From: Candidatus Multivorans sp.
GTDB lineage: Bacteria > Acidobacteriota > Thermoanaerobaculia > Multivoradales > Multivoraceae
Reading direction: 5' to 3'
Assembly (NCBI GenBank): GCA_965238135.1
Contig: OZ250177.1
Coordinates: forward strand, 541,744-605,743
DNA length: 64,000 bases
Position 1 is the stretch's first letter; every line of letters starts with the position of its first letter. A program made the position numbers and the translations under genes. Shown here piece by piece: positions 2,282 through 27,828 of this stretch. The notes under the pieces were generated by a model that worked only from the letters and a program-made list of their open reading frames with translations, searched no databases and was not told the DNA's origin.

Positions 2282-5083
2282 ATGAGAGAAAGCAACGCGA
2301 AGCAGAGAAGCCGGTCAAGTCAGCAAGATCCAATACGGCATGGACGCCGTTTGACCATCCTCGCGCTCGTAGTAGTCATGCACCTGCCGACCCTTTTCGC
2401 GGCTGCCCACGGGCAGACGAACTCGGCACCGGTTGTTCTACTCTCGATCGACGACGTGACCCTCACGGTGGGCTACGGGGCGACACAGTTCGACCTTGCT
2501 ACGCACTTCAATGATCCTGACGGCGATAGCCTCTCGTACGGAGTTTGGCACAGCAACAACGTTGGGGTCCTGTTCTCCGGGAGCACGATGTCTCTGACCG
2601 GCAGGGCAGCCGGCATGAGTACCGTCACAGTGCGAGCCACGGATCCTTCGGACCTCTACGCCGAATTGAGCTTCGCAGCGACGGTCAGAGCGAACACTGC
2701 GCCGGTTGTCCTTCTGCCGATCCCTGACGCGACGCTGACGGTCGGCGGCCGCACCGGGACGGTGGTCCTTTCGTCCCACTTCCAGGATGCTGAGGAGGGC
2801 GACCTGACCTACGCGGCGACATCGGCCGACCCTGCGATAGCGACGGCGACGGTGGCCGAGGGTGTGCTGTCCGTGACTGCCGTTGCGGCAGGAGCGACTA
2901 CCGTCACGGTGACGGCGAGTGACCCGGCCGCGGCGACTTCGGCTCCCGATGTATTCGCGGTGACCGTCGGGTCGCCAGTGAGTGTCACGGTACCGGATGC
3001 CAATCTTCGGACCGCGGTGGAGGCCGCGTTGGCAAGACAGGCCGGCGCGACGATCAACAGTGCCGAGATGGAAGGTCTGGGTCGGCTTGAGTGTGACAGT
3101 TGTGGCATTCAGAACCTCACCGGTTTGGAGTTCGCGACTGGATTGACCGCGCTGGCACTTGGCGGCAACTCGATTACTGACCCGACACCGCTCTCGGGTC
3201 TCACCGGTCTGACGGACCTGGATCTCGGCAGCAACTCGTTGACGGACGTTTCTCCGCTCTCGGGTCTCACCGGCTTGACGGACCTGGATCTCGGCAGCAA
3301 CTCGTTGACGGACGTTTCTCCGCTCTCGGGTCTCACCGGCTTGACGGACCTGGATCTCGGCAGCAACTCGTTGACGGATGTATCTCCGCTCTCGGGTCTC
3401 ACCGGTCTGACGGACCTGGATCTCGGCAGCAACTCGCTGACGGACGTTTCTCCGCTCTCGGGTCTCACCGGCTTGACGGACCTGGATCTCGGCAGCAACT
3501 CGTTGACGGATGTATCTCCGCTTTCGGGTCTCACCGGTCTGACGGACCTGGATCTCGGCAGCAACTCGTTGACGGACGTCACTCCCCTCTCGGGTCTCAC
3601 CGGCTTGACGGACCTGGATCTCGGCGGCAACTCGTTGACGGACGTTTCTCCGCTTTCGGGTCTCACCGGCCTGACGGACCTGGATCTCGCCAGCAACTCG
3701 TTGACGGACGCTTCTCCGCTTTCGGGGCTCACTGCCCTGACCGACGTGGAACTCGACGGCAACTCGCTGACGGACATCTCTCCGCTCTCGAGCCTGACCA
3801 GCCTCAGCCGACTGTATCTGCGCCACAATTGCCTTACGGGTATTCACGCGCTGACGAGCAACACCGGCTTGGGCCAAGGCGACCACATCGCGCTCGAGTG
3901 GAACCCTCTGGTAGCGAGCGCGGTTGCCGGCGATCTTGCCGCGCTGCGGGGCCGCGGAGTGACCGTGCTGGTCTCGGAGACGGCCTCGGTTGAAGTCGTA
4001 GCCCCGCTCAACGTGAGCGCGACCCCCGGTGACGGCGAACTGACATTGACCTGGGACTCCCCTCGAGACCCGGACGACGTAACCGTCTACGAAGTGCGCT
4101 GGCGTTCGGCCACGGGGACGTTCAGCGCCTGGACGATCGTTCCTTGTTCGTCAAAGCGCCGGCACAAGCTGACCGGTCTGGACAACGGCACGGCCTACAC
4201 GGTTGAACTACGGGCCGCAGGCCATGCCGACAACGGCGTCGCGACCGTAGGCCCCACAACAGTGAGGCCGCCCAACAGGGCACCGGTTGTCTCGCTCTCG
4301 ATCCCCGACGTGAGTCTCACAGTCGGCTACGGGGCGACGCAGTTCGACCTGTCGAACCACTTCAGCGACCCGGACGGCGACGAGCTCCTGTTTACAGCCA
4401 GCCCCCCGACTATCGTCACCGCCACCGTCACCGGAAACACGATGACCGTGGCACCGGTCGCAGCGGGCACTGGCGTGGCCACTGTGCGGGCGGCGGATCC
4501 TTCGGGACTCTTCGTTGAGCAGACGTTCAACGTGACCGTAGGCGCCAACGGCGCGCCGGAGGTGTCGCTGGCCATCGACAACATGACGCTCACGGTTGGT
4601 GGCCGGTCGGAAACCGTCACATTGTCAGCGCACTTTCGGGATCCCGAACAGGGGGCGCTGACCTACTCGTCCGTTTCCGCAAGTCCCGCCGTGGCAACCG
4701 CCACGGTATCTGATGGAGTACTGACAGTGAGCGGGGTGTCGGTCGGGACCGCACGGATGACCGTCACGGCGAGTGACCAGGGCGGCGCGACATCGGCTGG
4801 CGCTGTGTTCACGGTGACGGCAAGGGCCGCCGTGAATGTCGAGATACCGGACGCCAATCTCCGCACCGCCGTGGAACAGGAGTTGGGCAAACAGGCGGGG
4901 GCGACGATCACCAGCGCCGAGATGGAACAGATCGTCAGCTTCATGTGTCAAGATTGCAACATTGAAGTCTTGAGTGGTTTGGAGTACGCGACGGGAATGA
5001 CGGACCTCGACCTTGGTGACAATGTTTCAATTGCGGATCTGGCGGCTCTCTCAGGTCTCACTAACCTAACCTTGATTCGCTAG
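2282..5083 (+). CDS. Giant surface protein, 5' portion (signal peptide, 3 cadherin-like/Ig-like DPDGD domains, ~9 LRRs with LRR C-cap, FN3, 2-3 more cadherin-like domains, LRRs); truncated by IS insertion at 5066-5069
   Basis: ATG 2282 preceded by a GAGGGG RBS. Signal peptide RLTILALVVVMHLPTLFAAAHGQ. Repeated ~95-aa domains with a xxHFxDPDGDxLxY motif. 22-aa LRRs LSGLTGLTDLDLGSNSLTDVSP. FN3 segment VYEVRWRS...TAYTVELRA. The reading frame runs straight into the IS terminal inverted repeat, which supplies the stop (LIR*). Confidence 0.85.
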   Translation: MRESNAKQRSRSSQQDPIRHGRRLTILALVVVMHLPTLFAAAHGQTNSAPVVLLSIDDVTLTVGYGATQFDLATHFNDPDGDSLSYGVWHSNNVGVLFSGSTMSLTGRAAGMSTVTVRATDPSDLYAELSFAATVRANTAPVVLLPIPDATLTVGGRTGTVVLSSHFQDAEEGDLTYAATSADPAIATATVAEGVLSVTAVAAGATTVTVTASDPAAATSAPDVFAVTVGSPVSVTVPDANLRTAVEAALARQAGATINSAEMEGLGRLECDSCGIQNLTGLEFATGLTALALGGNSITDPTPLSGLTGLTDLDLGSNSLTDVSPLSGLTGLTDLDLGSNSLTDVSPLSGLTGLTDLDLGSNSLTDVSPLSGLTGLTDLDLGSNSLTDVSPLSGLTGLTDLDLGSNSLTDVSPLSGLTGLTDLDLGSNSLTDVTPLSGLTGLTDLDLGGNSLTDVSPLSGLTGLTDLDLASNSLTDASPLSGLTALTDVELDGNSLTDISPLSSLTSLSRLYLRHNCLTGIHALTSNTGLGQGDHIALEWNPLVASAVAGDLAALRGRGVTVLVSETASVEVVAPLNVSATPGDGELTLTWDSPRDPDDVTVYEVRWRSATGTFSAWTIVPCSSKRRHKLTGLDNGTAYTVELRAAGHADNGVATVGPTTVRPPNRAPVVSLSIPDVSLTVGYGATQFDLSNHFSDPDGDELLFTASPPTIVTATVTGNTMTVAPVAAGTGVATVRAADPSGLFVEQTFNVTVGANGAPEVSLAIDNMTLTVGGRSETVTLSAHFRDPEQGALTYSSVSASPAVATATVSDGVLTVSGVSVGTARMTVTASDQGGATSAGAVFTVTARAAVNVEIPDANLRTAVEQELGKQAGATITSAEMEQIVSFMCQDCNIEVLSGLEYATGMTDLDLGDNVSIADLAALSGLTNLTLIR
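3191..3784 (+). repeat. Nine tandem 66-bp repeats encoding 22-aa leucine-rich repeats; the first eight are >=90% identical at DNA level
   Basis: Unit ctctcgggtctcaccggcttgacggacctggatctcggcagcaactcgttgacggacgtttctccg is reiterated head-to-tail with only a few substitutions per copy. The last unit (3719-3784) is more diverged. Confidence 0.9.
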
Positions 5084-6575: not shown

Positions 6576-8051
6576 CTAAGGAGCCTGCTGCTTTTTGGCA
6601 ACGCGATCACGGACCTGTCGCCACTCTCGGGCCTCACTGCCCTCGCGGAGTTGGAACTCGACACCAACTCGATCGCGGACGTGTCGCCGCTCTCGGGTCT
6701 GACTGGACTTTCCTCGCTGGATCTCGCCGGAAACCGGATCACGAGTGTGTCGCCGCTCTCCGGTCTTTCCGGCGTTGAGGGGCTGAATCTCTCCACCAAC
6801 GGGATCACGGACGTATCGCCGTTGTCGGGGCTGACCGCCCTGAGACGTCTGTACCTTCGCAACAACGCGATCGCGGACATAGCGGCGCTCTTGGGCCTCA
6901 CGGACCTCAGGCAACTGAACCTCGATGGCAACAGGATCACGAATGTGTCTCCGCTCTCAAGTCTGACGAAGCTCGATCGGCTGGTTCTCCAGAACAACTC
7001 GATCGCGGAGATAGCGCCACTCTCAGGTCTCACCGGCCTTACGCAACTCGACCTCGACGACAACTCGCTCACGGCCCTGGGTGCGCTCTCAGGCCTGACG
7101 AATCTCAGGTGGCTGTATCTTGAAAGGAACTGCTTGACGAGCATCGACGCCTTGACGAGCAATACTGGATTGGGTGCCGGTGACCGCATCGGACTTCGGG
7201 AGAACGCCCTGGACGCTGACTCGCTCGCCAACGGCGTAACCGCACTGCGGGACCGCGGAGCGACCGTCCTAGTGACGGAGGCGCCGACGGCCAGAGTCGG
7301 CGCGCCGGCACACCTGATTGCGATGCCGGGGAACGGGGAGCTAGCTCTGACCTGGCCTGCCCCGCGAGCCGCGGTCGACATCCCGGCTTATGAGGTGCGC
7401 TGGCGTTCGGCCATCGGGACCTTCAGCGATTGGTCGACCGTTCCGTGCTCGTCGAAGGGTCGGCACCTGCTGAGTGGTCTAGTCAACGGCACGACATACA
7501 CGGTGGAACTACGGGCGGCTGGCCATGTCAGTAATGGCGTGAAGAGCGTTACCGCCACACCCACCAGCACGGCCGTTGTCGAGCCGGTGGAGACGATGTT
7601 GTGGGCAGCTTTGACGACACCGGGTGAGGTACCGTCGATATACGACGACACCTTTGAGTGGCTAGTCTCGGCGAGAGGAGCTTGGCCGATGCTGGTAGCG
7701 GAGGCGACCGTTTACCAGCCGCCGGTATACCTCCGTGAACTTGAGATTGCTCAGGGTCAGGAGCGAGGTTCCCACGTTGAGATTGCGCTCTCGACAACAT
7801 CGACGGGTTTGTCGTCGCTACCACCGTGGATGTTCGGTTGGCGAGTCCTGTTCTCGGTTCACGATGTCGGGCTGAACGAAGCGCTCCTCGACGAGGACGG
7901 CTTACCGCTTGTTCAAGCACAACTGAATGCTCGCGGGGAGGGCCGGTTCGCTGGAACGCTCGAGGGCGAGCTCGACACGTTCTGGGCCGCGATCTCGGAT
8001 AGCGGCGACTACGACTGGAGTGAGGGCCTGTACGTTGAACTGAGGCCCTGA
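6576..8051 (+). pseudogene. 3' portion of the IS-disrupted giant surface protein gene (LRRs, LRR C-cap, FN3, C-terminal domain of unknown function)
   Basis: Frame is open from the first base after the right IS end (LRSLLLFGNAITDLSPLSGLTALAELELDTNSIADVSPLS...). It continues the LRR register of the upstream fragment and has no signal peptide or start of its own. It repeats the module order of the upstream part (LRR - LYLxxNCLTxIxALTSNTGLGxGD cap - FN3 YEVRWRS...TYTVELRAAGH). Confidence 0.85.
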
Positions 8052-17471: not shown

Positions 17472-19823
17472 ATGGACAAGCGAGATCTCTCAGAGCGCGA
17501 TATCTGCACGAAGTTCATCACGCCCGCCCTGCGCGGGGCCGGATGGGACGAGATGTCACAGCTTCGCGAGGAGGTGAGCTTCACCGATGGCCGCATCACC
17601 GTGCGAGGAAAGATGGTTTCGCGCGGAAAGCGGAAGCGCGCCGACTACATCCTCGACTTCAAGCCGAACATTCCGCTCGCGGTGATCGAGGCCAAGGACA
17701 ATACCCACAGCGTGGGCGACGGCATGCAGCAGGCCTTGGACTACGCCGGGACCCTGAACATCCCGTTCGCGTTCTCGTCGAACGGCGACGGCTTCGTGTT
17801 CCACGACCGCACGGGGGCCAGTACGCCCCGCGAGACGAACCTGCCGCTCGACGCGTTTCCGTCGCCGGCCGATCTGTGGGCGCGCTATCGGGCCTGGAAG
17901 GGCCTGACGCCGGAGGCCGAGAGGATCGTCCTCCAGGACTACTTCGAGGACCGTGGCGGCAAGACGCCGCGCTACTACCAGATCAACGCCGTCAACGCGA
18001 CGATCGAGGCCATCTCCAAGGGGCAGGACCGCATCCTGCTCGTCATGGCCACGGGCACGGGCAAGACGTACACCGCTTTCCAGATCATCTGGCGGCTGTG
18101 GAAGGCGCGGCGCAAGAAGCGCATCCTGTTCCTTGCCGACCGCAACGTGCTCATCGACCAGACGATCGCGAACGACTTTCGCCCGTTCGGCGGGGCCATG
18201 ACCAAGCTCTCGCGCGACATCGACGCCTCCTTCGAGGTGTATCTCGGCCTCTATCAGGCGATCACGGGGCCGGACGACCACCAGAAGGCGTTTCGGAAGT
18301 TCTCGCCGGAGTTCTTCGATCTGATCGTGATCGACGAATGCCACCGGGGAAGTGCAGCTGACGATTCGGCGTGGCGCGAGATCCTCGAGTACTTCTCCTC
18401 CGCAACCCAGATCGGCCTCACCGCCACGCCGAAGGAGACGAAGTATGTCTCCAACATCGACTACTTCGGGGAGCCCGTCTTCTCCTACTCCCTGAAACAG
18501 GGCATCCGCGACGGCTTCCTCGCGCCCTACAAGGTGGTCAAGGTCCACATCGACCGGGACGTCGAAGGCTACCGTCCGGAAAAGGGCCAGCTTGACCGCG
18601 ACGGAGAGGAGGTTGAGGACCGCATCTACAATGTCAGGGACTTCGATCGCACGCTCGTCATCGACGGGCGGACGAAGCTGGTGGCTGAGAAGGTCACGAC
18701 GTTTCTGCGGGAGAGCGGCGACCGCTTCCAGAAGGCGATCGTTTTCTGCGTCGATCAGGAGCACGCCGCCCGGATGCGCCAGGCGCTCGTCAACGAGAAT
18801 GCCGATCTTGTCGAGCGCAACGCACGGTATGTCATGCGGATCACGGGCGCGGACGAGGCTGGAAAGGCCGAACTGGGGAACTTCATCGATCCCGAATCGA
18901 GTCACCCGGTGCTCGTCACCACGTCGCGCCTGCTGTCCACCGGCGTCGATGTCCAGACGTGCCGGGTCATCGTGCTCGACCGGGAGGTAGGCTCGATGAC
19001 CGAGTTCAAGCAGATCGTCGGCCGCGGCACCCGAGTGCATGAGGACACCGGGAAGTTCTACTTCACGCTCATCGACTTCCGGAACGCGAGCGGCCACTTC
19101 GCGGACCCGGACTTCGACGGCGAGCCGGTGCAGATCTACGAACCAGGCGTGGGGGATCCGATCCTTCCTCCCGATACGCCCGAGGATGAAGACCTCGGTG
19201 AAGAGGAGATGGCCGCTATCGGGGGCGGCAACGGCCTGCCGCCCACGGAGACGCATCCCCTGAAGATCTTTGTTGATGGCATCGAGGCGACCATCGTCGC
19301 CGAGCGGGTCGAGTACCTCGACGAGCACGGCAAGCTCATCACCGAGTCGCTACGCGACTTCACGAGGAAGGCGCTGCGCAGGCGCTTCGCGAGCCTGGAC
19401 GACTTCCTGAACCGTTGGAATGCTGCGGAGCGCAAGCAGGCGATCATCGACGAGATGGCGGCCGAGGGCCTGCCACTTACTGCGATTGTCCCTGAATTGG
19501 GCAAGGATCTCGACCCCTTCGATCTCGTCTGCCACATCGCCTTCGACGTCAAGCCGCTAACCCGCCGGGAACGGGCCGAGAACGTCAGGAAACGGGACGT
19601 GTTCACGAAGTACGGAGGACAGGCCCGCGCCGTGCTCGACGCACTGCTCGACAAGTACGCCGACGAGGGCGTCATCAATCTCGACGACGCCAACGTGCTC
19701 AGGATTCCGCCGCTCGACAGTCTCGGCACCCCGGTCGAGCTCGTCCGCGCCTTCGGCGGAAAGCCCGGCTTCGAGCGGGCCGTGCGCGATCTTCAGTCGG
19801 CGCTCTACAGGGAGGTCGCCTAA
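17472..19823 (+). CDS. hsdR: Type I restriction-modification system, restriction (R) subunit HsdR
   Basis: N-terminal HsdR_N PD-(D/E)xK nuclease motif (DYILDF...IEAKD). SF2 helicase motifs I LVMATGTGKT, II DECHR, III LTATP, VI QIVGRGTR. GGGAGG RBS upstream. Confidence 0.9.
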   Translation: MDKRDLSERDICTKFITPALRGAGWDEMSQLREEVSFTDGRITVRGKMVSRGKRKRADYILDFKPNIPLAVIEAKDNTHSVGDGMQQALDYAGTLNIPFAFSSNGDGFVFHDRTGASTPRETNLPLDAFPSPADLWARYRAWKGLTPEAERIVLQDYFEDRGGKTPRYYQINAVNATIEAISKGQDRILLVMATGTGKTYTAFQIIWRLWKARRKKRILFLADRNVLIDQTIANDFRPFGGAMTKLSRDIDASFEVYLGLYQAITGPDDHQKAFRKFSPEFFDLIVIDECHRGSAADDSAWREILEYFSSATQIGLTATPKETKYVSNIDYFGEPVFSYSLKQGIRDGFLAPYKVVKVHIDRDVEGYRPEKGQLDRDGEEVEDRIYNVRDFDRTLVIDGRTKLVAEKVTTFLRESGDRFQKAIVFCVDQEHAARMRQALVNENADLVERNARYVMRITGADEAGKAELGNFIDPESSHPVLVTTSRLLSTGVDVQTCRVIVLDREVGSMTEFKQIVGRGTRVHEDTGKFYFTLIDFRNASGHFADPDFDGEPVQIYEPGVGDPILPPDTPEDEDLGEEEMAAIGGGNGLPPTETHPLKIFVDGIEATIVAERVEYLDEHGKLITESLRDFTRKALRRRFASLDDFLNRWNAAERKQAIIDEMAAEGLPLTAIVPELGKDLDPFDLVCHIAFDVKPLTRRERAENVRKRDVFTKYGGQARAVLDALLDKYADEGVINLDDANVLRIPPLDSLGTPVELVRAFGGKPGFERAVRDLQSALYREVA

Positions 19824-19826
19824 GAG

Positions 19827-21278
19827 ATGTCCGTCAGCACTCTGGTCAAGTCCATTCAGAACATCATGCGCCAGGACGCTGGGGTGGACGGCGACGCGCA
19901 GCGCATCAGCCAACTGTGCTGGATGTTCTTCCTCAAGATCATCGACGACCAGGACCAGGAACTCGAGCTCTTTGACGACGGCTACGGCTCGCCCGTCCCT
20001 GCAGATCTGCGATGGCGGAGCTGGGCGGCCGACCCGGAAGGCATCACCGGCGAAGAGCTGCTCGACTTCGTCAACGGCGATCTCTTTCCACAGCTCAAGG
20101 AACTCCCGCCCAGGGCAGGCCCTCGCGCGAACGTCGTGCGCGACGTGTTCGAGGACGCCTACAACTACATGAAGTCTGGTCAGTTGATGCGGCAGGTGGT
20201 CAACAAGATCAACAGCATCGACTTCAACAACCTGGCCGCCCGCCAGCACTTCGGCGACATCTACGAGCAGATTCTGAACGACCTGCAATCGGCCGGCAAC
20301 GCGGGTGAGTACTACACCCCGCGGGCCGTGACCACCTTCATGGCCCGGATGATCGACCCGAAGCCGGGCGAGATCCTGTTCGACCCGGCTTGCGGCACGG
20401 GCGGGTTCCTCACCTGCGCTATGCAGCACATGCGCGAGCGGTATGTGAAGCGGCCCGAGGACGAGGCGAGCATGCAGGTTTCGCTGCTCGCGGTGGAGAA
20501 GAAGCCGCTTCCCCACATGCTCGCCGTCACGAACATGCTGCTGCACGGCATCGAGGATCCGTCCTTCCTGCGCCACGACAACACCTTGGCGCGGCCCTAC
20601 ACCTCCTGGGGCCGCGACGAGCGCGTGGACATCGTGCTGACCAATCCGCCGTTCGGCGGCAAGGAGGAGGATGGCATTGAGTCGAACTTCCCACAGCACT
20701 TCCGAACGCGAGAGACGGCGGACCTGTTCCTGGCCCTGATCATCCGGCTACTCAAGCCTGGAGGCAGGGCCGCCGTCGTCCTGCCAGACGGCTCCCTGTT
20801 CGGCGAAGGCGTCAAGACGCGGCTCAAGGAGCACCTGATGAAGGAGTGCAACCTTCACACCATCGTGCGCCTGCCGAACTCGGTGTTTCGCCCCTACGCC
20901 TCGGTCGGAACGAACCTGCTGTTCTTCGAGAAGGGCGAGCCGACGAGGGACATCTGGTTCTGGGAGCATCTCGTACCCGAAGGCCAGAAGGCCTACTCCA
21001 TGACACGGCCCGTACGGGTGGAGCATCTCGACGACTGCGCCGATTGGTGGGGTGGGACGGAGCGCACCGGCCGGGAGGAGGGTGGCCGGGCCTGGAAGGT
21101 GAGCGCCGACGAGATCAAGGCGCGCGGCTACAACATCGACATCAAGAACCCTCATACCGAGGAGGAGGACCTTGGCGATCCCGAGACGCTTCTGGAGGAA
21201 CTGACGAGCGCCGAGGCTGAGGTGCTGTCGGTGCGGAGTGAGTTGAGGCGAATTCTGACTGAGGCGCTCCTACGGTGA
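19827..21278 (+). CDS. hsdM: Type I R-M N6-adenine DNA methyltransferase subunit HsdM
   Basis: Motif I FDPACGTGGFL and motif IV LTNPPFGG; HsdM N-terminal domain. Start is 4 nt after the hsdR stop. Confidence 0.92.
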   Translation: MSVSTLVKSIQNIMRQDAGVDGDAQRISQLCWMFFLKIIDDQDQELELFDDGYGSPVPADLRWRSWAADPEGITGEELLDFVNGDLFPQLKELPPRAGPRANVVRDVFEDAYNYMKSGQLMRQVVNKINSIDFNNLAARQHFGDIYEQILNDLQSAGNAGEYYTPRAVTTFMARMIDPKPGEILFDPACGTGGFLTCAMQHMRERYVKRPEDEASMQVSLLAVEKKPLPHMLAVTNMLLHGIEDPSFLRHDNTLARPYTSWGRDERVDIVLTNPPFGGKEEDGIESNFPQHFRTRETADLFLALIIRLLKPGGRAAVVLPDGSLFGEGVKTRLKEHLMKECNLHTIVRLPNSVFRPYASVGTNLLFFEKGEPTRDIWFWEHLVPEGQKAYSMTRPVRVEHLDDCADWWGGTERTGREEGGRAWKVSADEIKARGYNIDIKNPHTEEEDLGDPETLLEELTSAEAEVLSVRSELRRILTEALLR

Positions 21279-23044
21279 ACGCCGACCGCTTGCTCGCCCT
21301 CTACGACCGCGTGGCGGACGCGCCGGACGCCATCGGCCGCCTGAGCCGGTTCGTGCTTGACACCGCCGTGCGCGGCAAGCTCGTGAAGCAGGATCCGGCG
21401 GATGAACCGGCATCAGAGTTGCTGCGACGGATCGACGCCGAGAAAGCGCGAATGGTCAAGGCGGGAGAGATCAGAAAGCCCCGCAATCTGTCGACCGGTG
21501 AGGACTTGGTGGCACTCTTTGAGGTTCCGGCCAAATGGTGCTGGCGGCGCCTCGATACAATAGGAGCTATCGTTGGTGGTGGCACGCCATCGGCTGGCGA
21601 TCCTGCGAACTTCTCGGAGCCCGGAGAGGGCGTCGCGTGGTTGACACCCAAGGACCTCGGCAGCCTCGGAAGCTCATACATCGGCCGCGGTAGCCGCGAT
21701 CTCTCGGGAAAGGGCTTTCGTTCGTCATCGGCCACTCTCATGCCGACTGGGACTGTCCTCTTTTCAAGTCGAGCGCCGATCGGGTACGTCGCGATCGCTG
21801 CAAACCCGGTTGCGACGAATCAGGGGTTCAAATCCGTCGTCCCCTATGTTTCTGATTGTTCGAGGTACATAGCGCTGGTGATGCAGGCGTTTGGGCCTGC
21901 AATCGACGCCATGGCGTCAGGGACCACCTTCAAAGAGGTTTCGGGAAGGACTGTCGCCGGCGTTCCCTTCCCTCTCCCGACGCTCGCCGAGCAGCACCGC
22001 ATCGTCGCCAAGGTCGATGAACTCATGGCGCTGTGCGACCGTTTAGAGGAAGCTCGCGTCTCCCGGGAGGGCGCCCGCGACCGGCTGACGAGGGCCAGCC
22101 TGTCGCGCTTGGTTGCGGCAGAGGCAGAAGAAGCGCAGGCAGCTACGTTCCGGGTTCTTGCGCGTTTCACAGTCGATGCCCTTCCCGCGCTGACGGCCCG
22201 CGCCGACCAAGTCCAGGGCTTTCGCCAGACCATTCTCGGCCTCGCGGTCCGGGGAAGGCTGGTCGAGCAGGATCCCGCTGACAAACCGGCGTCGGAACTC
22301 CTGAAGCGGATCGCCGCCGAAAAGGCGCGAATGGTGGGGGCGGGGGCGATCCGGAAGCCACGCAGTCTGCCGAACGGTGAGGACTTGGCAGCACCGTTCG
22401 GGATTCCGGACACCTGGTGCTGGGACCGCCTCGATGCCATTGGAGCAATCGTCGGTGGTGGCACACCGTCTGCGAGCGATCACAAGAACTTTGCGCAATC
22501 GGGAGAGGGTATTCCGTGGCTCACGCCGAAAGACCTCGGCGGCCATGAAGACCTGTACATCGAACGCGGCAGCCGCGATCTGTCGACGAGTGGTCTGCGA
22601 TCGTCCTCGGCGACACTCATGCCTGCGGAAACAGTCCTTTTCAGTAGCCGTGCGCCGATAGGGTACGTGGCAATCGCGGCGAACCCAGTTGCCACCAATC
22701 AGGGCTTCAAGTCCATCGTCCCGTACGTGCCGGGCTGCTCCAGATTCATCGCCTTGGCGATGAGGGCGTTCGGGCCTGAGATCGCTGCCAGTGCTCCGGG
22801 GACGACATTCAAGGAGGTGTCAGGAAAGCTCGTCGCTGGCGTTCCCTTTCCTCTCCCGCCACTCGCCGAGCAGCACCGCATCGTCGCCAGGGTCGACGAA
22901 CTCATGGCGCTGTGCGACGGGCTGGAGGGAAGTCTTGCGACTGCGGACGACACGCGCGGCCGCCTGCTTGACTCTCTCCTCGATGAAGCGTTGGCCGCCG
23001 ACTGGGCCGCCACGGTCCAACACGTCGCGGAGTCTCAGCCATGA
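21275..23044 (+). CDS. hsdS: Type I R-M specificity subunit HsdS with two near-identical target-recognition halves
   Basis: Overlaps the hsdM stop (ATGA). Two ~290-aa halves, each with a TRD and the conserved LAEQHRIVA(K/R)VDELMALCD(R/G)LE spacer; halves are ~75-80% identical to each other. Confidence 0.88.
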   Translation: MNADRLLALYDRVADAPDAIGRLSRFVLDTAVRGKLVKQDPADEPASELLRRIDAEKARMVKAGEIRKPRNLSTGEDLVALFEVPAKWCWRRLDTIGAIVGGGTPSAGDPANFSEPGEGVAWLTPKDLGSLGSSYIGRGSRDLSGKGFRSSSATLMPTGTVLFSSRAPIGYVAIAANPVATNQGFKSVVPYVSDCSRYIALVMQAFGPAIDAMASGTTFKEVSGRTVAGVPFPLPTLAEQHRIVAKVDELMALCDRLEEARVSREGARDRLTRASLSRLVAAEAEEAQAATFRVLARFTVDALPALTARADQVQGFRQTILGLAVRGRLVEQDPADKPASELLKRIAAEKARMVGAGAIRKPRSLPNGEDLAAPFGIPDTWCWDRLDAIGAIVGGGTPSASDHKNFAQSGEGIPWLTPKDLGGHEDLYIERGSRDLSTSGLRSSSATLMPAETVLFSSRAPIGYVAIAANPVATNQGFKSIVPYVPGCSRFIALAMRAFGPEIAASAPGTTFKEVSGKLVAGVPFPLPPLAEQHRIVARVDELMALCDGLEGSLATADDTRGRLLDSLLDEALAADWAATVQHVAESQP

Positions 23045-24189
23045 CCCGCGTCCCGGTATCGTCCGAGATGCTGCGCTGGGCCTGCGAGCGCTCCGGTCGC
23101 GACGTCGCGGACCTCGCGGCCCGTGTTCCTCAGCTTCCGGCTTGGGTCCGAGGCGAGAGACAGCCGACGCTCAAACAGTTGGAGAGGCTGGCCACGGCTA
23201 CGCGGACGCCATTCGGTTATCTGTTCCTGACCGCGCCGCCGGAGGAGCGTCTTCCGGTTCCCGACTTTCGTACGGTGTGGGGTGCTTTCCGGGCGAGACC
23301 GACCCCCGACCTGCTGGACACGCTGTACAGCATGCAACGTCGCCAGGAGTGGCTCCGGGAGAGCTTGGTCGAGAGCGACGTGGGACCGCTGTCGTTCGCT
23401 GGAAGCGCCCGCCTGACGGATGACCCGGCCTCCGTGGGTCGGGAGATGCGGCGAGCACTCGGTCTCGATGACGGCTGGGCTGCGGAAGTGAGCACCTGGC
23501 AAGAGGCTGTGAGGGAGCTTCGCCGGGCCATTGAGCAGGTCGGCGTGATGGCGGTGATCAACGGAGTAGTCGGGAACAACACGAGCCGGAAGCTGAGCGT
23601 GGAGGAGTTTCGCGGCTTCGCGCTCACGGATCCTTACGCCCCGTTGATCTTCGTGAATGGCGCTGACGCCAAGTCGGCGCAGATGTTCACTCTCGCCCAC
23701 GAGTTGGCCCACATCTGGCTTGGCACGGAGGGGGTCTCCGGCTTCGAGTCCCTGTTCCCCGGCGGCTCGGACGTGGAGGACTGGTGCAACGCGGCCGCGG
23801 CTGAACTCCTCGTCCCTTCGGAGGAAGTGGCACCTCGTTGGAACGAGGTGAAGAGGGGACCAAGGCCGTTCGAGACGCTCGCCCGGGCGTTCAAGGTGAG
23901 TCCGGTTGTTGCCGCCCGCCGGGCCCTGGACCTGAGTCTTGTCGACCGCGACGCCTTTCGCGACTTCTACAAGGGGTACGTCAAGCGCGATCTCGCGAGT
24001 GGCGCGAGTTCCACCGGGGGCAACTTCTACAACAACCAGAACACCCGTGTCGGCGAGCTGTTCGCGTCCCACGTGCTCCGTGCGGCGATGGAGGGCCGAA
24101 TCGGGTTCAAGGAAGCCTACGACCTGACTGGCTTGCGTGGAGGAACCTTCCAGAAGTACGCGAGGCGACTGGGGGTGAATCTCCCATGA
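23041..24189 (+). CDS. HTH-domain plus ImmA/IrrE-family zinc metallopeptidase (COG2856-like)
   Basis: Overlaps the hsdS stop. Central HEXXH motif HELAHIWLG within an ImmA/IrrE-like region; N-terminal helix-turn-helix-like segment. Confidence 0.75.
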   Translation: MTRVPVSSEMLRWACERSGRDVADLAARVPQLPAWVRGERQPTLKQLERLATATRTPFGYLFLTAPPEERLPVPDFRTVWGAFRARPTPDLLDTLYSMQRRQEWLRESLVESDVGPLSFAGSARLTDDPASVGREMRRALGLDDGWAAEVSTWQEAVRELRRAIEQVGVMAVINGVVGNNTSRKLSVEEFRGFALTDPYAPLIFVNGADAKSAQMFTLAHELAHIWLGTEGVSGFESLFPGGSDVEDWCNAAAAELLVPSEEVAPRWNEVKRGPRPFETLARAFKVSPVVAARRALDLSLVDRDAFRDFYKGYVKRDLASGASSTGGNFYNNQNTRVGELFASHVLRAAMEGRIGFKEAYDLTGLRGGTFQKYARRLGVNLP

Positions 24190-24722
24190 CGAACGGCACG
24201 ACCTACCTCGTGGACTCGGATGTGTTCATCACGGCGAAGAACCTGTACTACGCGTTCGGCCTGTGCCCCGGGTTCTGGAAGAGCGTGCTGCACCACCATC
24301 GGAGGGGCCGGATTTTCAGCGTCGACAGGGTTCGCAGCGAACTCCTCGCGGGCACCGAGACAGAGGATCTCGTGCGGTGGGTCAAGGAAGAAGTTCCACG
24401 GGAGTTCTTTCTCCCGGTGGATGCCGACGCTGTCGTGAGTGCCTACACGGAGATCATGATGTGGGTGCAGCGCCACGGGAGGTACTTCGACCACGCCAAG
24501 GCGAAGTTCGCCACCGGAGCGGACGGCTGGTTGGTCGCCTGCGCACGGGTTCAGGGCGCCGCCGTGGTCACGAACGAACGGGAGGCGCCGGAGTCCCGGA
24601 GGGAGATCAAACTGCCCGACGTGTGCGAGGAGTTCGGTGTGGAGCACCCCAACGTCTTCGAGATGCTTCAGGCGTTGGACATCCAGTTCGACTGGACGGA
24701 GGACCGGAAGCCGGCGTCGTGA
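24186..24722 (+). CDS. DUF4411 family (PIN-like) protein, partner of the ImmA/IrrE peptidase
   Basis: ATGA overlap with the upstream gene. N-terminal YLVDSDVFITAKNLYYAFGLCPGFW motif characteristic of DUF4411. Confidence 0.7.
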   Translation: MTNGTTYLVDSDVFITAKNLYYAFGLCPGFWKSVLHHHRRGRIFSVDRVRSELLAGTETEDLVRWVKEEVPREFFLPVDADAVVSAYTEIMMWVQRHGRYFDHAKAKFATGADGWLVACARVQGAAVVTNEREAPESRREIKLPDVCEEFGVEHPNVFEMLQALDIQFDWTEDRKPAS

Positions 24723-24813: not shown

Positions 24814-25095
24814 TCAGCCAGCGCGTTCGAAGCCGACCGTTAGCCGCGCGCCGGTCGCTCCCGCATAGCGCCGCAGCGTCGCGTACGACGGCGACACCCG
24901 GCCCCCTTCCAGCCGCGCGATCGCCGATTGGGTCGTGCCGAGCCGTTCGGCCAGTTCCGCCTGCGTCAGCTTCGCCGCCGTCCGGGCGCAGATCATCGCC
25001 TCGATCAGCGCATACTCGCTGTCGGCACTGGCGTACTCCTCCCGAAACGCCGGATCCTCCAGCAGGCGCGCCTTCAGATCCTTCAGCTTCGTCAT
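24814..25095 (-). CDS. XRE-family helix-turn-helix DNA-binding protein (HigA/antitoxin-like size)
   Basis: 93 aa; HTH segment LTQAELAERLGTTQSAIARLEGG. No adjacent toxin ORF recognised. Confidence 0.8.
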   Translation of the reverse strand: MTKLKDLKARLLEDPAFREEYASADSEYALIEAMICARTAAKLTQAELAERLGTTQSAIARLEGGRVSPSYATLRRYAGATGARLTVGFERAG

Positions 25096-25262: not shown

Positions 25263-25895
25263 CTACCGGATCTCGACGTACCGCGCCAGCCGTTCGACCT
25301 CGTCGTCGTCAACGTACTTGCCGATCTCGCGCCGGAACTGAGACATCGCCTCGTAGGGTCGGTACTCCTCGAACTCGTGCCGCATGCGTCGGCCGACGCC
25401 GGGGATGTTCAGGATGTCCTCGCCGGACGCCGTGTTCAGGTCGATGCGGGCGTACACGTACTGGGCGAGCCGCGTCACCTCATCGTCGTCGACGTACTTG
25501 CCGATTTCCCGGTGGAACTGGGCAAGCGCCGTGTAGGGGCGGTACTCCTCGAACTCGTGGGTCATCCGCCGGCCGACCCCCGGGATGAGCCCGATCTCCT
25601 CGGAGGTCGCGTCGTTCAGGTCGATGGGGACCCAGATCGCCCCGTAGACCTCGTCGTACCGGTCTTCGGTGACGTGGGCCGAGATCACGGCGTGGAGGTC
25701 GGCGGCCCGCAGGAAGGGGCGGCCGTCGAGCAACGCCTTGAGGGCGTCACCGTCGAGGCCGTCCACGTCGGCTAGCTCCTCCTCGCTGGCGAGGTTTGGG
25801 TTGAGCAGGCCGTGGTTGGCCCCGACCTGGGGTGTGATAGGTAGGGCGGCTAGGAACAGGGCTGATGTAGTCCACATTAGGGCCGAGCACTTCAT
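25263..25895 (-). CDS. Secreted ComEA-like protein with three tandem helix-hairpin-helix DNA-binding units
   Basis: Start at 25895. Signal peptide MKCSALMWTTSALFLAALPITPQVGA. Three repeated ~70-aa units containing (D/E)LN(D/T)A(S/T)xE(E/D)(I/L)xxIPGVGRRMxHEFEEYRPY. The last two units are ~85% identical at DNA level. Confidence 0.75.
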   Translation of the reverse strand: MKCSALMWTTSALFLAALPITPQVGANHGLLNPNLASEEELADVDGLDGDALKALLDGRPFLRAADLHAVISAHVTEDRYDEVYGAIWVPIDLNDATSEEIGLIPGVGRRMTHEFEEYRPYTALAQFHREIGKYVDDDEVTRLAQYVYARIDLNTASGEDILNIPGVGRRMRHEFEEYRPYEAMSQFRREIGKYVDDDEVERLARYVEIR

Positions 25896-26982: not shown

Positions 26983-27828
26983 ATGGACATTCGAGAGCGT
27001 CAGAATTGCCAGCGGTCGTTGGAGAGGCTGGTCGCCGTAGGTTGGCTCTATGGACGGGTCAAGAAGGTGGAAGGCTGGCGGCTGGTGTTCATAGTAGGCG
27101 TCGCGGGTCTGCTGCTGTCGGGTCTGGCCGTGGAAGCGGATGCCTACAGCCGAGTGGCGGCGATCGTCGTCGTCTTGCTCTGGTGCATAGACCAGGCGGT
27201 TCTGGTTGCATGCGCCGACAGGATGAAGGAAGAGGCGGCGGCGATTCAAGAAGACTTCGACTGTTTCGTCCTCGGCCTACCGTGGCCGGAGCACTGCGGT
27301 GTCGGGCGGCCGACGGATGACAGGGTGAGAGACTTGGCGACGATGGCAGGTGGGCGAGGCGAGCAGAGGGAGGAGCTGGCTGACTGGTACGGAAGGGACG
27401 GTATTCCCGAGGAACCGCTGTCAGCGCGGCTGTATTGCCAGAGAACCAACTGCCGGTGGGACGAACGACTGCGCAAAGAGTGGATCTGCGCCATCAGATC
27501 CTTCGCGGGCGGGTCGCTGGCTGTGGGCCTCGTTGTGGCAGCGCTGGCCGGCGTCTCGCTGCTCGGGGTGGTTCTTGCGGCGGCGGCGGGACTCAGGCTT
27601 GTTGCGTGGTTGGCGATGGAAGTCAGGGCTCAATCGGCGGCGAGGAAGCGTATGAAAGAGCTGCATGGCTTCCTGTCGCGGCCCGGCGCGCAGACCGGCA
27701 GGCTGACCCTTTGCGACTCCCGGCTCGTGCAGGCGCGACTCTTCGAGCACCGGCGGCTTAGCCCGACTGTGCCGGATTGGTTTTATCGGTTGAGGAAGAC
27801 GGATCACGAGGCGATGGAACCGGGTTGA
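26983..27828 (+). CDS. Membrane protein with 2TM + soluble linker + 2TM architecture (candidate pore-forming effector, SLATT/S-4TM-like)
   Basis: ATG at 26983. TM pairs LVFIVGVAGLLLSGLAVEA / VAAIVVVLLWCIDQAVLVACA and GGSLAVGLVVAALAGVSLLGVVLAAAAGLRLVAWLAMEV, separated by a ~90-aa soluble region; charged C-terminal tail. No catalytic motifs. Confidence 0.55.
   Translation: MDIRERQNCQRSLERLVAVGWLYGRVKKVEGWRLVFIVGVAGLLLSGLAVEADAYSRVAAIVVVLLWCIDQAVLVACADRMKEEAAAIQEDFDCFVLGLPWPEHCGVGRPTDDRVRDLATMAGGRGEQREELADWYGRDGIPEEPLSARLYCQRTNCRWDERLRKEWICAIRSFAGGSLAVGLVVAALAGVSLLGVVLAAAAGLRLVAWLAMEVRAQSAARKRMKELHGFLSRPGAQTGRLTLCDSRLVQARLFEHRRLSPTVPDWFYRLRKTDHEAMEPG

Follow-up and report, generated by a model that had tools for sequence, protein, structure and literature searches.

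A type IB restriction-modification specificity subunit with two copies of one target recognition domain and a predicted symmetric target site

The 64,000-nucleotide stretch of Candidatus Multivorans contig OZ250177.1 analyzed here (the window) carries an hsdR-hsdM-hsdS operon whose last gene encodes a specificity subunit, HsdS, with the same family of target recognition domain (TRD) in both of its TRD slots. We name this family TRD-X, and its two copies in the window T1 (first slot) and T2 (second slot). The explanation we favor, on balance and with real room for error, is that of a functional type I restriction-modification (R-M) system of the EcoAI kind with old twin TRD-X domains, which would recognize a symmetric bipartite site with a half-site that is most likely CCA.

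Results and discussion

Twin recognition domains in HsdS

Self-alignment of HsdS pairs residues 4-283 with residues 301-576, with 189/280 positions identical (67.5%). Identity rises to 76.7% in an ungapped core (residues 30-256 versus 323-549) and to 83% at the start of the distal conserved helix (237-260 versus 530-553). The TRD cores themselves, residues 84-236 and 377-529, are identical at 116 of 153 positions, or 75.8%. An earlier, sequence-only reading of this DNA had described two halves about 78% identical and had stressed that the likeness takes in the TRD cores and not the spacers alone; both observations are borne out, the former for the core. Its estimate of about 80% similarity at the DNA level was slightly high, although the repeat is real: blastn aligns nucleotides 90-813 of the gene with nucleotides 969-1692 at 74.9% identity over 728 nt, with 8 gaps (E=7e-137). 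Half-to-half identity exceeds 60% only in the top five of the 120 best homologues and lies between 26 and 44% in the other 115, a background explained by the repetition of conserved regions in every type IB HsdS.

The same reading had quoted two identical stretches. Both are indeed present in the two halves, but they are not specific evidence for twin TRDs. One, LAEQHRIVAKVDELMALCD, is a conserved spacer: the consensus of 48 mostly non-twin homologues carries it in both places, and the HsdS of Escherichia coli CFT073 has a counterpart. The other, SRAPIGYVAIAAN..TNQGFKS, is a framework block inside the TRD, nearly invariant across the TRD-X family and present also in the N-terminal TRD (N-TRD) of the type IA HsdS of E. 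coli UTI89. The evidence for twin TRDs is the 76% identity over the whole domain, by which both slots are occupied by one TRD family.

Pfam Methylase_S is matched in two stretches of HsdS. An AlphaFold2 model built with 48 homologues is confident (predicted local distance difference test 85.5, predicted template modeling score 0.74) and displays two globular alpha/beta domains linked by very long helices, those of the central region spanning residues 237-281, 286-306, 310-325 and 339-355. The top Foldseek matches of the model in the Protein Data Bank (PDB) are HsdS structures (1YF2, 2Y7C, 3OKG and 5YBB), and the modeled fold is canonical. The domain order D2-S1-D1-S2 is a hallmark of type IB subunits (PMC3874165). 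We recovered this order here, as residues 1-83, which precede TRD1, are conserved and helical. The CFT073 HsdS, also 589 residues long, aligns through all conserved regions including this N-terminal one, and shares the motif AVRGKLV.QDP.DEPASELL.RI with the window protein at both positions. The consensus PLPPLAEQHRIVAKVDELMALCDRLE of the central conserved region is found in all homologues, as is the repetition of the conserved regions at the protein level, so that the layout can be written x-TRD-y-x-TRD-y.

A complete type IB system

The other two subunits support the assignment to type IB. HsdR matches the NCBIfam equivalog NF046051 (restrict_EcoAI) over its full length with 1159 bits, for a cutoff of 550. 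It contains the Pfam domains ResIII, EcoEI_R_C (2.5e-32) and HSDR_N, and its translation shows a D..EAK nuclease motif and a DECH helicase motif. HsdM matches N6_Mtase (7.9e-72) and HsdM_N (4e-11) and carries the motifs DPACGTGGF and NPPF; the HsdM_N domain together with NPPF places it in the gamma class of N6-adenine methyltransferases. All three open reading frames are intact, full-length and translationally coupled, the GTG start codon of hsdS overlapping the stop codon of hsdM (GTGA). HsdM and HsdR are 59.6% and 56.6% identical to their E. coli CFT073 counterparts. These values lie below the >90% identity used in silico to delimit the EcoAI group and indicate an EcoAI-like architecture outside the narrow enterobacterial complementation group. 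The operon thus apparently encodes a complete type I R-M system of the EcoAI (type IB) kind, predicted from its sequence to be functional. Coordinates are given in Table 1.

Table 1. Features of the hsdR-hsdM-hsdS operon in the window, and half-size hsdS genes found in related loci
Feature	Position	Strand	Description
hsdR	17472..19823	+	783 aa; EcoAI/FtnUII-family (type IB) restriction/translocase subunit
hsdM	19827..21278	+	483 aa; N6-adenine methyltransferase subunit
hsdS	21275..23044	+	589 aa; specificity subunit; last gene of the operon
N-terminal conserved region, aa 1-83	21275..21523	+	Helices and linker ahead of TRD1; aligns to aa 301-376
TRD1 (T1), aa 84-236	21524..21982	+	TRD-X member
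Central conserved region, aa 237-376	21983..22402	+	Long coiled-coil helix and repeat of the N-terminal conserved region
TRD2 (T2), aa 377-529	22403..22861	+	Second, diverged TRD-X copy
C-terminal conserved helix, aa 530-589, and stop codon	22862..23044	+	Helix 530-586 in the model
DNA repeat, copy 1 (spacer-TRD-spacer module)	21364..22087	+	blastn match to copy 2
DNA repeat, copy 2	22243..22966	+	blastn match to copy 1
Half-size type IB hsdS, single TRD-X	L053:3001-3870		360 nt downstream of an hsdM
Half-size type IB hsdS, single TRD-X	L062 about 3001-3885
Half-size type IB hsdS, single TRD-X	L084 about 3001-3795

The TRD-X family

More than 100 of the 120 best homologues have an N-TRD that is 67-83% identical to TRD1, paired with an unrelated C-terminal TRD (C-TRD). 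Five further proteins (P0014, P0016, P0068, P0078 and P0095) have TRD-X in the C slot alone. A scan of species-representative genomes yielded 80 TRD-X loci, in hosts that include Gemmatimonadota, Acidobacteriota, Alpha- and Gammaproteobacteria, Binatia, Nitrospirota and Spirochaetia, among others. The closest HsdS relatives come from Gemmatimonadota and from other soil and sediment metagenome-assembled genomes. A TRD-X-like N-TRD was also observed in E. coli: of 5426 complete genomes of this species, 143, that of strain MS6192 (L086:5704-7455) among them, carry a type IB hsdS allele with such a domain. At the DNA level this allele is 98.9% identical to that of Pseudocitrobacter faecalis (L060), a sign of recent transfer between the two genera.

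Of the 153 columns of the domain, 78 show at least 95% conservation across 125 copies drawn from many phyla. Both T1 and T2 match 77 of these near-invariant columns, and the 37 residues at which they differ lie almost all at columns that vary freely within the family. Five loops have been proposed as DNA contacts in the HsdS of T. tengcongensis (PMC3047542). They map, indirectly, by alignment onto the residues TPSA, PK, RA, QG and TFK, which are the same in T1 and T2 and are invariant in the family except for the K of PK, at a column that holds A in 80% of members and K in the subclade of the window gene. The PacII-DNA crystal structure (PMC9613975), at 13% identity, would give an alignment that is untrustworthy for residue-level contacts. 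From the conserved columns, T1 and T2 are likely to have the same specificity.

Age and origin of the two copies

Nei-Gojobori estimates between T1 and T2 give dS (synonymous divergence) of about 1.4, which is saturated, dN (non-synonymous divergence) of 0.16 and a dN/dS ratio of about 0.12. Both TRDs are therefore under purifying selection, with no sign of diversifying selection. Identity at third codon positions is down to 53%. T1 is nearer to the N-TRDs of other organisms (up to 83% identity) than to T2 (76%). In a neighbor-joining tree of the family, both copies fall on long terminal branches within one subclade of about 25 members, and they appear as sisters in 1% of 200 bootstrap replicates. 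Distance, tree and bootstrap together rule out T1 and T2 as mutual closest relatives. The DNA repeats flanking the TRDs have decayed, the longest exact runs between the halves being 28, 21 and 14 nt, and such a repeat is a poor substrate for homologous recombination.

The second copy may stem from an ancient intragenic duplication or from another allele; with both domains on long branches, the two origins are hard to tell apart. The sole pointer to common descent is a rare residue, G at family column 124, shared by T1 and T2 and present in 4% of the remaining members; we take it as a hint. No second HsdS-like sequence occurs on either strand of the 64-kb window. A phase-variable hsdS shufflon was considered and rejected, since the 64 kb hold no further hsdS copy and no recombinase gene adjoins hsdS, the neighbors encoding an ImmA/IrrE peptidase and a DUF4411 protein.

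In the scenario we propose, a spacer-TRD-spacer module bearing TRD-X would have been copied from position 1 into position 2 through the conserved regions that flank both slots, either by domain movement or by gene conversion. Both copies would by now be old and kept by purifying selection. Saturated synonymous sites in combination with purifying selection would then speak for a symmetric specificity maintained over a long period, and not for a fresh duplication.

Young twins and half-size genes in relatives

Close relatives of the window gene appear to show module copying in action. In P0002, the hsdS gene contains a perfectly identical direct repeat of 698 nt (L002:6082-6779 and 6952-7649, a period of 870 nt) on a 5.25-Mb long-read contig; it would stem either from a very recent copying of the TRD module or from ongoing gene conversion. 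The intragenic repeats of P0003 and P0004, also about 700 nt long, are 94.8% and 95.8% identical. In all three genes the repeats end inside conserved regions. The N copy groups with the C copy of its own protein in 96-100% of bootstraps in P0002, P0003 and P0004, and in 48% in P0005. Overall, we count five twins and five C-only proteins, so that alleles carry TRD-X in either position, and the twins are scattered over different parts of the TRD-X tree. We read this distribution as the probable outcome of at least four independent copying events. Recurrent homogenization by gene conversion is an alternative to such independent copyings. Furthermore, natural half-size hsdS genes with a single TRD-X, encoding about 265-295 residues, are present at three loci (Table 1).

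Predicted target site

According to the established architecture of type I enzymes, the two TRDs of HsdS would lie in inverted orientation on an antiparallel coiled coil. With inverted TRDs, the M2S and R2M2S complexes would bind a half-site, a fixed gap and the reverse complement of that half-site, and one adenine per strand would be methylated. Several precedents bear on the case of twin TRDs. When a TRD is transferred to the opposite slot, it recognizes the reverse complement of its half-site (PMC3983042; TRD inversion, PMC3874165). Single-chain S.PacII with a duplicated TRD1 methylates CCC-N5-GGG (PMC5100572). Dimers of half-HsdS read palindromic sites in NgoAV, EcoR124I delta50, EcoDXXI deltaC and the S. 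aureus half-S (PMC3874165, PMC6158711). By analogy with TRD duplication elsewhere, and given the conserved columns and loops of T1 and T2, the rotationally symmetric bipartite target put forward in the sequence-only reading is the one we hold most likely; a strictly symmetric site seems to us rather probable.

Homology provides a lead on the half-site. The type IA HsdS of EcoUTI89I recognizes CCA-N7-CTTC (PMC8287963), and its N-TRD is 49% identical to T1 and 48% to T2 (E=4e-45). EcoST101V of E. coli MS6192, a type IB enzyme, recognizes CCA-N9-TTGG (bioRxiv 10.1101/2020.06.07.138552), and its N-TRD is 53% identical to T1. Of the 78 near-invariant TRD-X columns, 56 are kept in EcoUTI89I and 62 in EcoST101V. 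The C-TRDs of these enzymes are related neither to one another nor to TRD-X, and CCA is the half-site common to both enzymes. TRDs reading the same sequence in different families are typically 36-50% identical (PMC5399793). The interval between methylated bases is 9 in all four characterized type IB enzymes (PMC3874165, Table 1). A CCA half-site with 9 bp between the methylated bases leads to CCA-N9-TGG, which we propose as the most likely site on the strength of this homology.

Two other guides to the half-site, both enzymes that lack a CCA half-site, were discarded. EcoCFTI of CFT073, of type IB, recognizes GAG-N7-GTCA (PMC8287963); GAG and TGAC are ruled out as half-sites, as the CFT073 conserved regions align with ours and its TRDs are without similarity to TRD-X. 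EcoKI (PDB 2Y7C; AAC/GCAC) matches only in the conserved helix and shows no TRD similarity.

Alternative explanations

Several observations weigh against identical specificities or against the CCA assignment. T1 and T2 differ at 37/153 residues, and in Helicobacter pylori a few substitutions were enough to switch the half-site of a TRD from CTA to CCA, and no identity threshold could be set (PMC3983042). With these differences and this precedent, a quasi-palindromic, slightly asymmetric site may apply. The differences cluster in two loops, residues 108-121 and 130-137, that adjoin the modeled DNA-contact loops. T2 carries the substitution G452E (window 22628-22630) at a column that is Gly in 98% of 123 family members: its sequence MPAETVLF departs from the usual MP.G.VLF, with Gly in TRD1 and in the CCA-reading TRDs of E. 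coli. The mapping of contact residues draws on a superposition model made for another HsdS and on an alignment of about 25% identity. As for CCA, its assignment leans on about 50% identity across families, and the EcoST101V N-TRD could read CCAA instead of CCA. We also list here the lack of depletion of CCA-N9-TGG in the window (20 sites, for 13.4 +/- 4.2 expected), although this count is uninformative either way.

These points give substance to a scenario in which duplication was followed by divergence of specificity, leaving related but non-identical half-sites (for example, CCA versus CCAA or CYA) and a quasi-palindromic, asymmetric site. We consider it unlikely, yet the most serious competitor. 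TRDs that differ at 24% of residues, with saturated synonymous sites and two long terminal branches, have had ample time to diverge, and the change of a near-invariant glycine in T2 as well as the H. pylori switches lend it weight. In TRD-X as a whole, no segments vary more than these two divergent loops, which can be read in its favor; however, most substitutions affect columns that are freely variable in more than 100 members with differing partner TRDs. Against divergence also stand the conservation of 77/78 near-invariant columns and of all five modeled DNA-contact loops in both copies, and a dN/dS ratio without any signal of diversifying selection. Conserved specificity thus remains our preferred reading over divergence.

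A decaying or methyltransferase-only system, in which the twin HsdS would be a non-functional by-product of recombination, appears very improbable. Some single-TRD or aberrant H. pylori alleles did yield no motif (PMC3983042), but here the three genes are intact and coupled, the catalytic motifs are present, strong purifying selection acts on both TRDs and the HsdS model is confident. We give still less credit to the idea, advanced in the sequence-only reading, of a relatively recent tandem duplication whose repeat would still be active in TRD shuffling or in deletion to a half-gene. States of this kind do exist in relatives, with the perfect repeat of L002, those of about 95% in L003 and L004, and the half-size genes of L053, L062 and L084. 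For the window gene itself the idea is already contradicted: on age, by the saturated dS, the eroded third positions, the near absence of T1/T2 sisterhood in bootstraps and the greater proximity of T1 to foreign N-TRDs; on recombination, by a DNA identity of 75% and exact runs that do not exceed 28 nt.

Genomic neighborhood

Two genes follow hsdS on the same strand, at 23041-24189 (+) and 24186-24722 (+), the first overlapping the hsdS stop codon. The former encodes an ImmA/IrrE-type M78 metallopeptidase with a weak N-terminal helix-turn-helix (HTH), the latter a DUF4411 (PIN-like) protein. Both genes apparently belong to the R-M operon. The pair is not found downstream of hsdS in relatives L002-L004, and its absence there suggests an accessory insertion.

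On a larger scale, G+C content falls to 0.62-0.66 between about 17000 and 31000 in the window, compared with 0.67-0.70 in the flanks. Besides the R-M operon and the ImmA/DUF4411 pair, this stretch holds an XRE-type HTH gene (24814-25095, -), an S_4TM-domain gene (26983-27828) and an AAA ATPase gene (from about 28629). It looks like a defense or mobile island inserted after a DUF1800/DUF1501 pair. A small protein encoded at 25263-25895 (-), with faint helix-hairpin-helix matches, has an internal tandem duplication of its own: the motif ...HEFEEYRPY..QF.REIGKYVDDDEV.RLA.YV... occurs twice.

Significance

The window HsdS is a natural single-chain, twin-TRD subunit in a type IB framework. This is a known sort of variant and implies no new mechanism: the understanding of how type I enzymes work is unchanged. 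Its interest lies in the age of the twin arrangement, in the repeated occurrence of such copying among relatives, and in a motif prediction that can be tested. If our explanation is true, nature has here maintained over a long time a symmetric type I enzyme with a single-chain S subunit within type IB. A review of 2014 named NgoAV as the only natural palindromic type I system and reported homodimeric S subunits for type IC alone (PMC3874165).

We may also hypothesize, at somewhat less than even odds, a wider picture: a 'frozen', probably CCA-reading TRD-X would have spread over many phyla, been copied from slot 1 to slot 2 on at least four or five separate occasions and also been cut down to natural half-size genes, with symmetric type IB specificities that range from brand-new (100% repeats) to ancient (the window). 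If true, the proteins concerned would form the first natural group of homodimer-like S subunits beyond type IC, and a natural time series on whether duplicated TRDs keep or change their specificity. The graded twin alleles, with self-identities of 100%, about 95%, 78% and 76%, could show the pace of TRD drift or of specificity change. Practical value is modest and consists of the checkable prediction CCA-N9-TGG; the specificity of TRD-X could then be transferred to hundreds of uncharacterized systems.

Comparison with known systems

EcoAI and EcoCFTI (type IB, GAG-N7-GTCA, from E. coli 15T- and CFT073) represent the same three-gene system as that of the window, with an HsdS of 589 residues, the D2-S1-D1-S2 order and internally repeated conserved regions. 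The TRDs, however, are unrelated to those of the window, and HsdM and HsdR are 57-60% identical. EcoAI combines two different TRDs and an asymmetric site, whereas the window HsdS has twin TRDs.

EcoUTI89I and Eco646I (both type IA, CCA-N7-CTTC) and EcoST101V have N-TRDs homologous to TRD-X, at 49-53% identity. The blocks they have in common with it are GGTP, W.TP.DL, LFSSRAPIGYVAIA, TNQGFKS and GTTFKE. In contrast to the window protein, these enzymes have a TRD-X-like domain in one position alone, with an unrelated partner TRD in the other, which accounts for their asymmetric sites.

Domain movement, as described in hsdS genes of H. pylori, S. pyogenes and M. catarrhalis (PMC3077401, PMC3983042, PMC6241649), involves the same x-TRD1-y-x-TRD2-y arrangement. 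There, too, one TRD family is found in position 1 or 2, sometimes in both, and one-TRD deletion forms occur. Those cases were described within species and involve short exact repeats. TRD-X extends across phyla in a type IB framework, and in the window the flanking repeats have decayed to at most 28 nt of exact identity.

The half-HsdS homodimers (NgoAV, which reads GCA-N8-TGC, EcoR124I delta50, EcoDXXI deltaC and the S. aureus CC398 half-S) recognize interrupted palindromes by means of one TRD present twice in two-fold symmetry (PMC3874165, PMC6158711). They consist of two half-size chains, all natural or classical cases being type IC, whereas the window HsdS is one fused chain in a type IB framework. 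S.PacII-mut1 (PMC5100572) resembles the window HsdS in a further respect, as one polypeptide with the same TRD in both slots, and its palindrome was shown experimentally. That construct is synthetic, with identical copies, and belongs to a non-canonical family methylating N4-cytosine and N6-adenine (m4C/m6A), whereas the window copies are natural, 24% diverged and of type IB.

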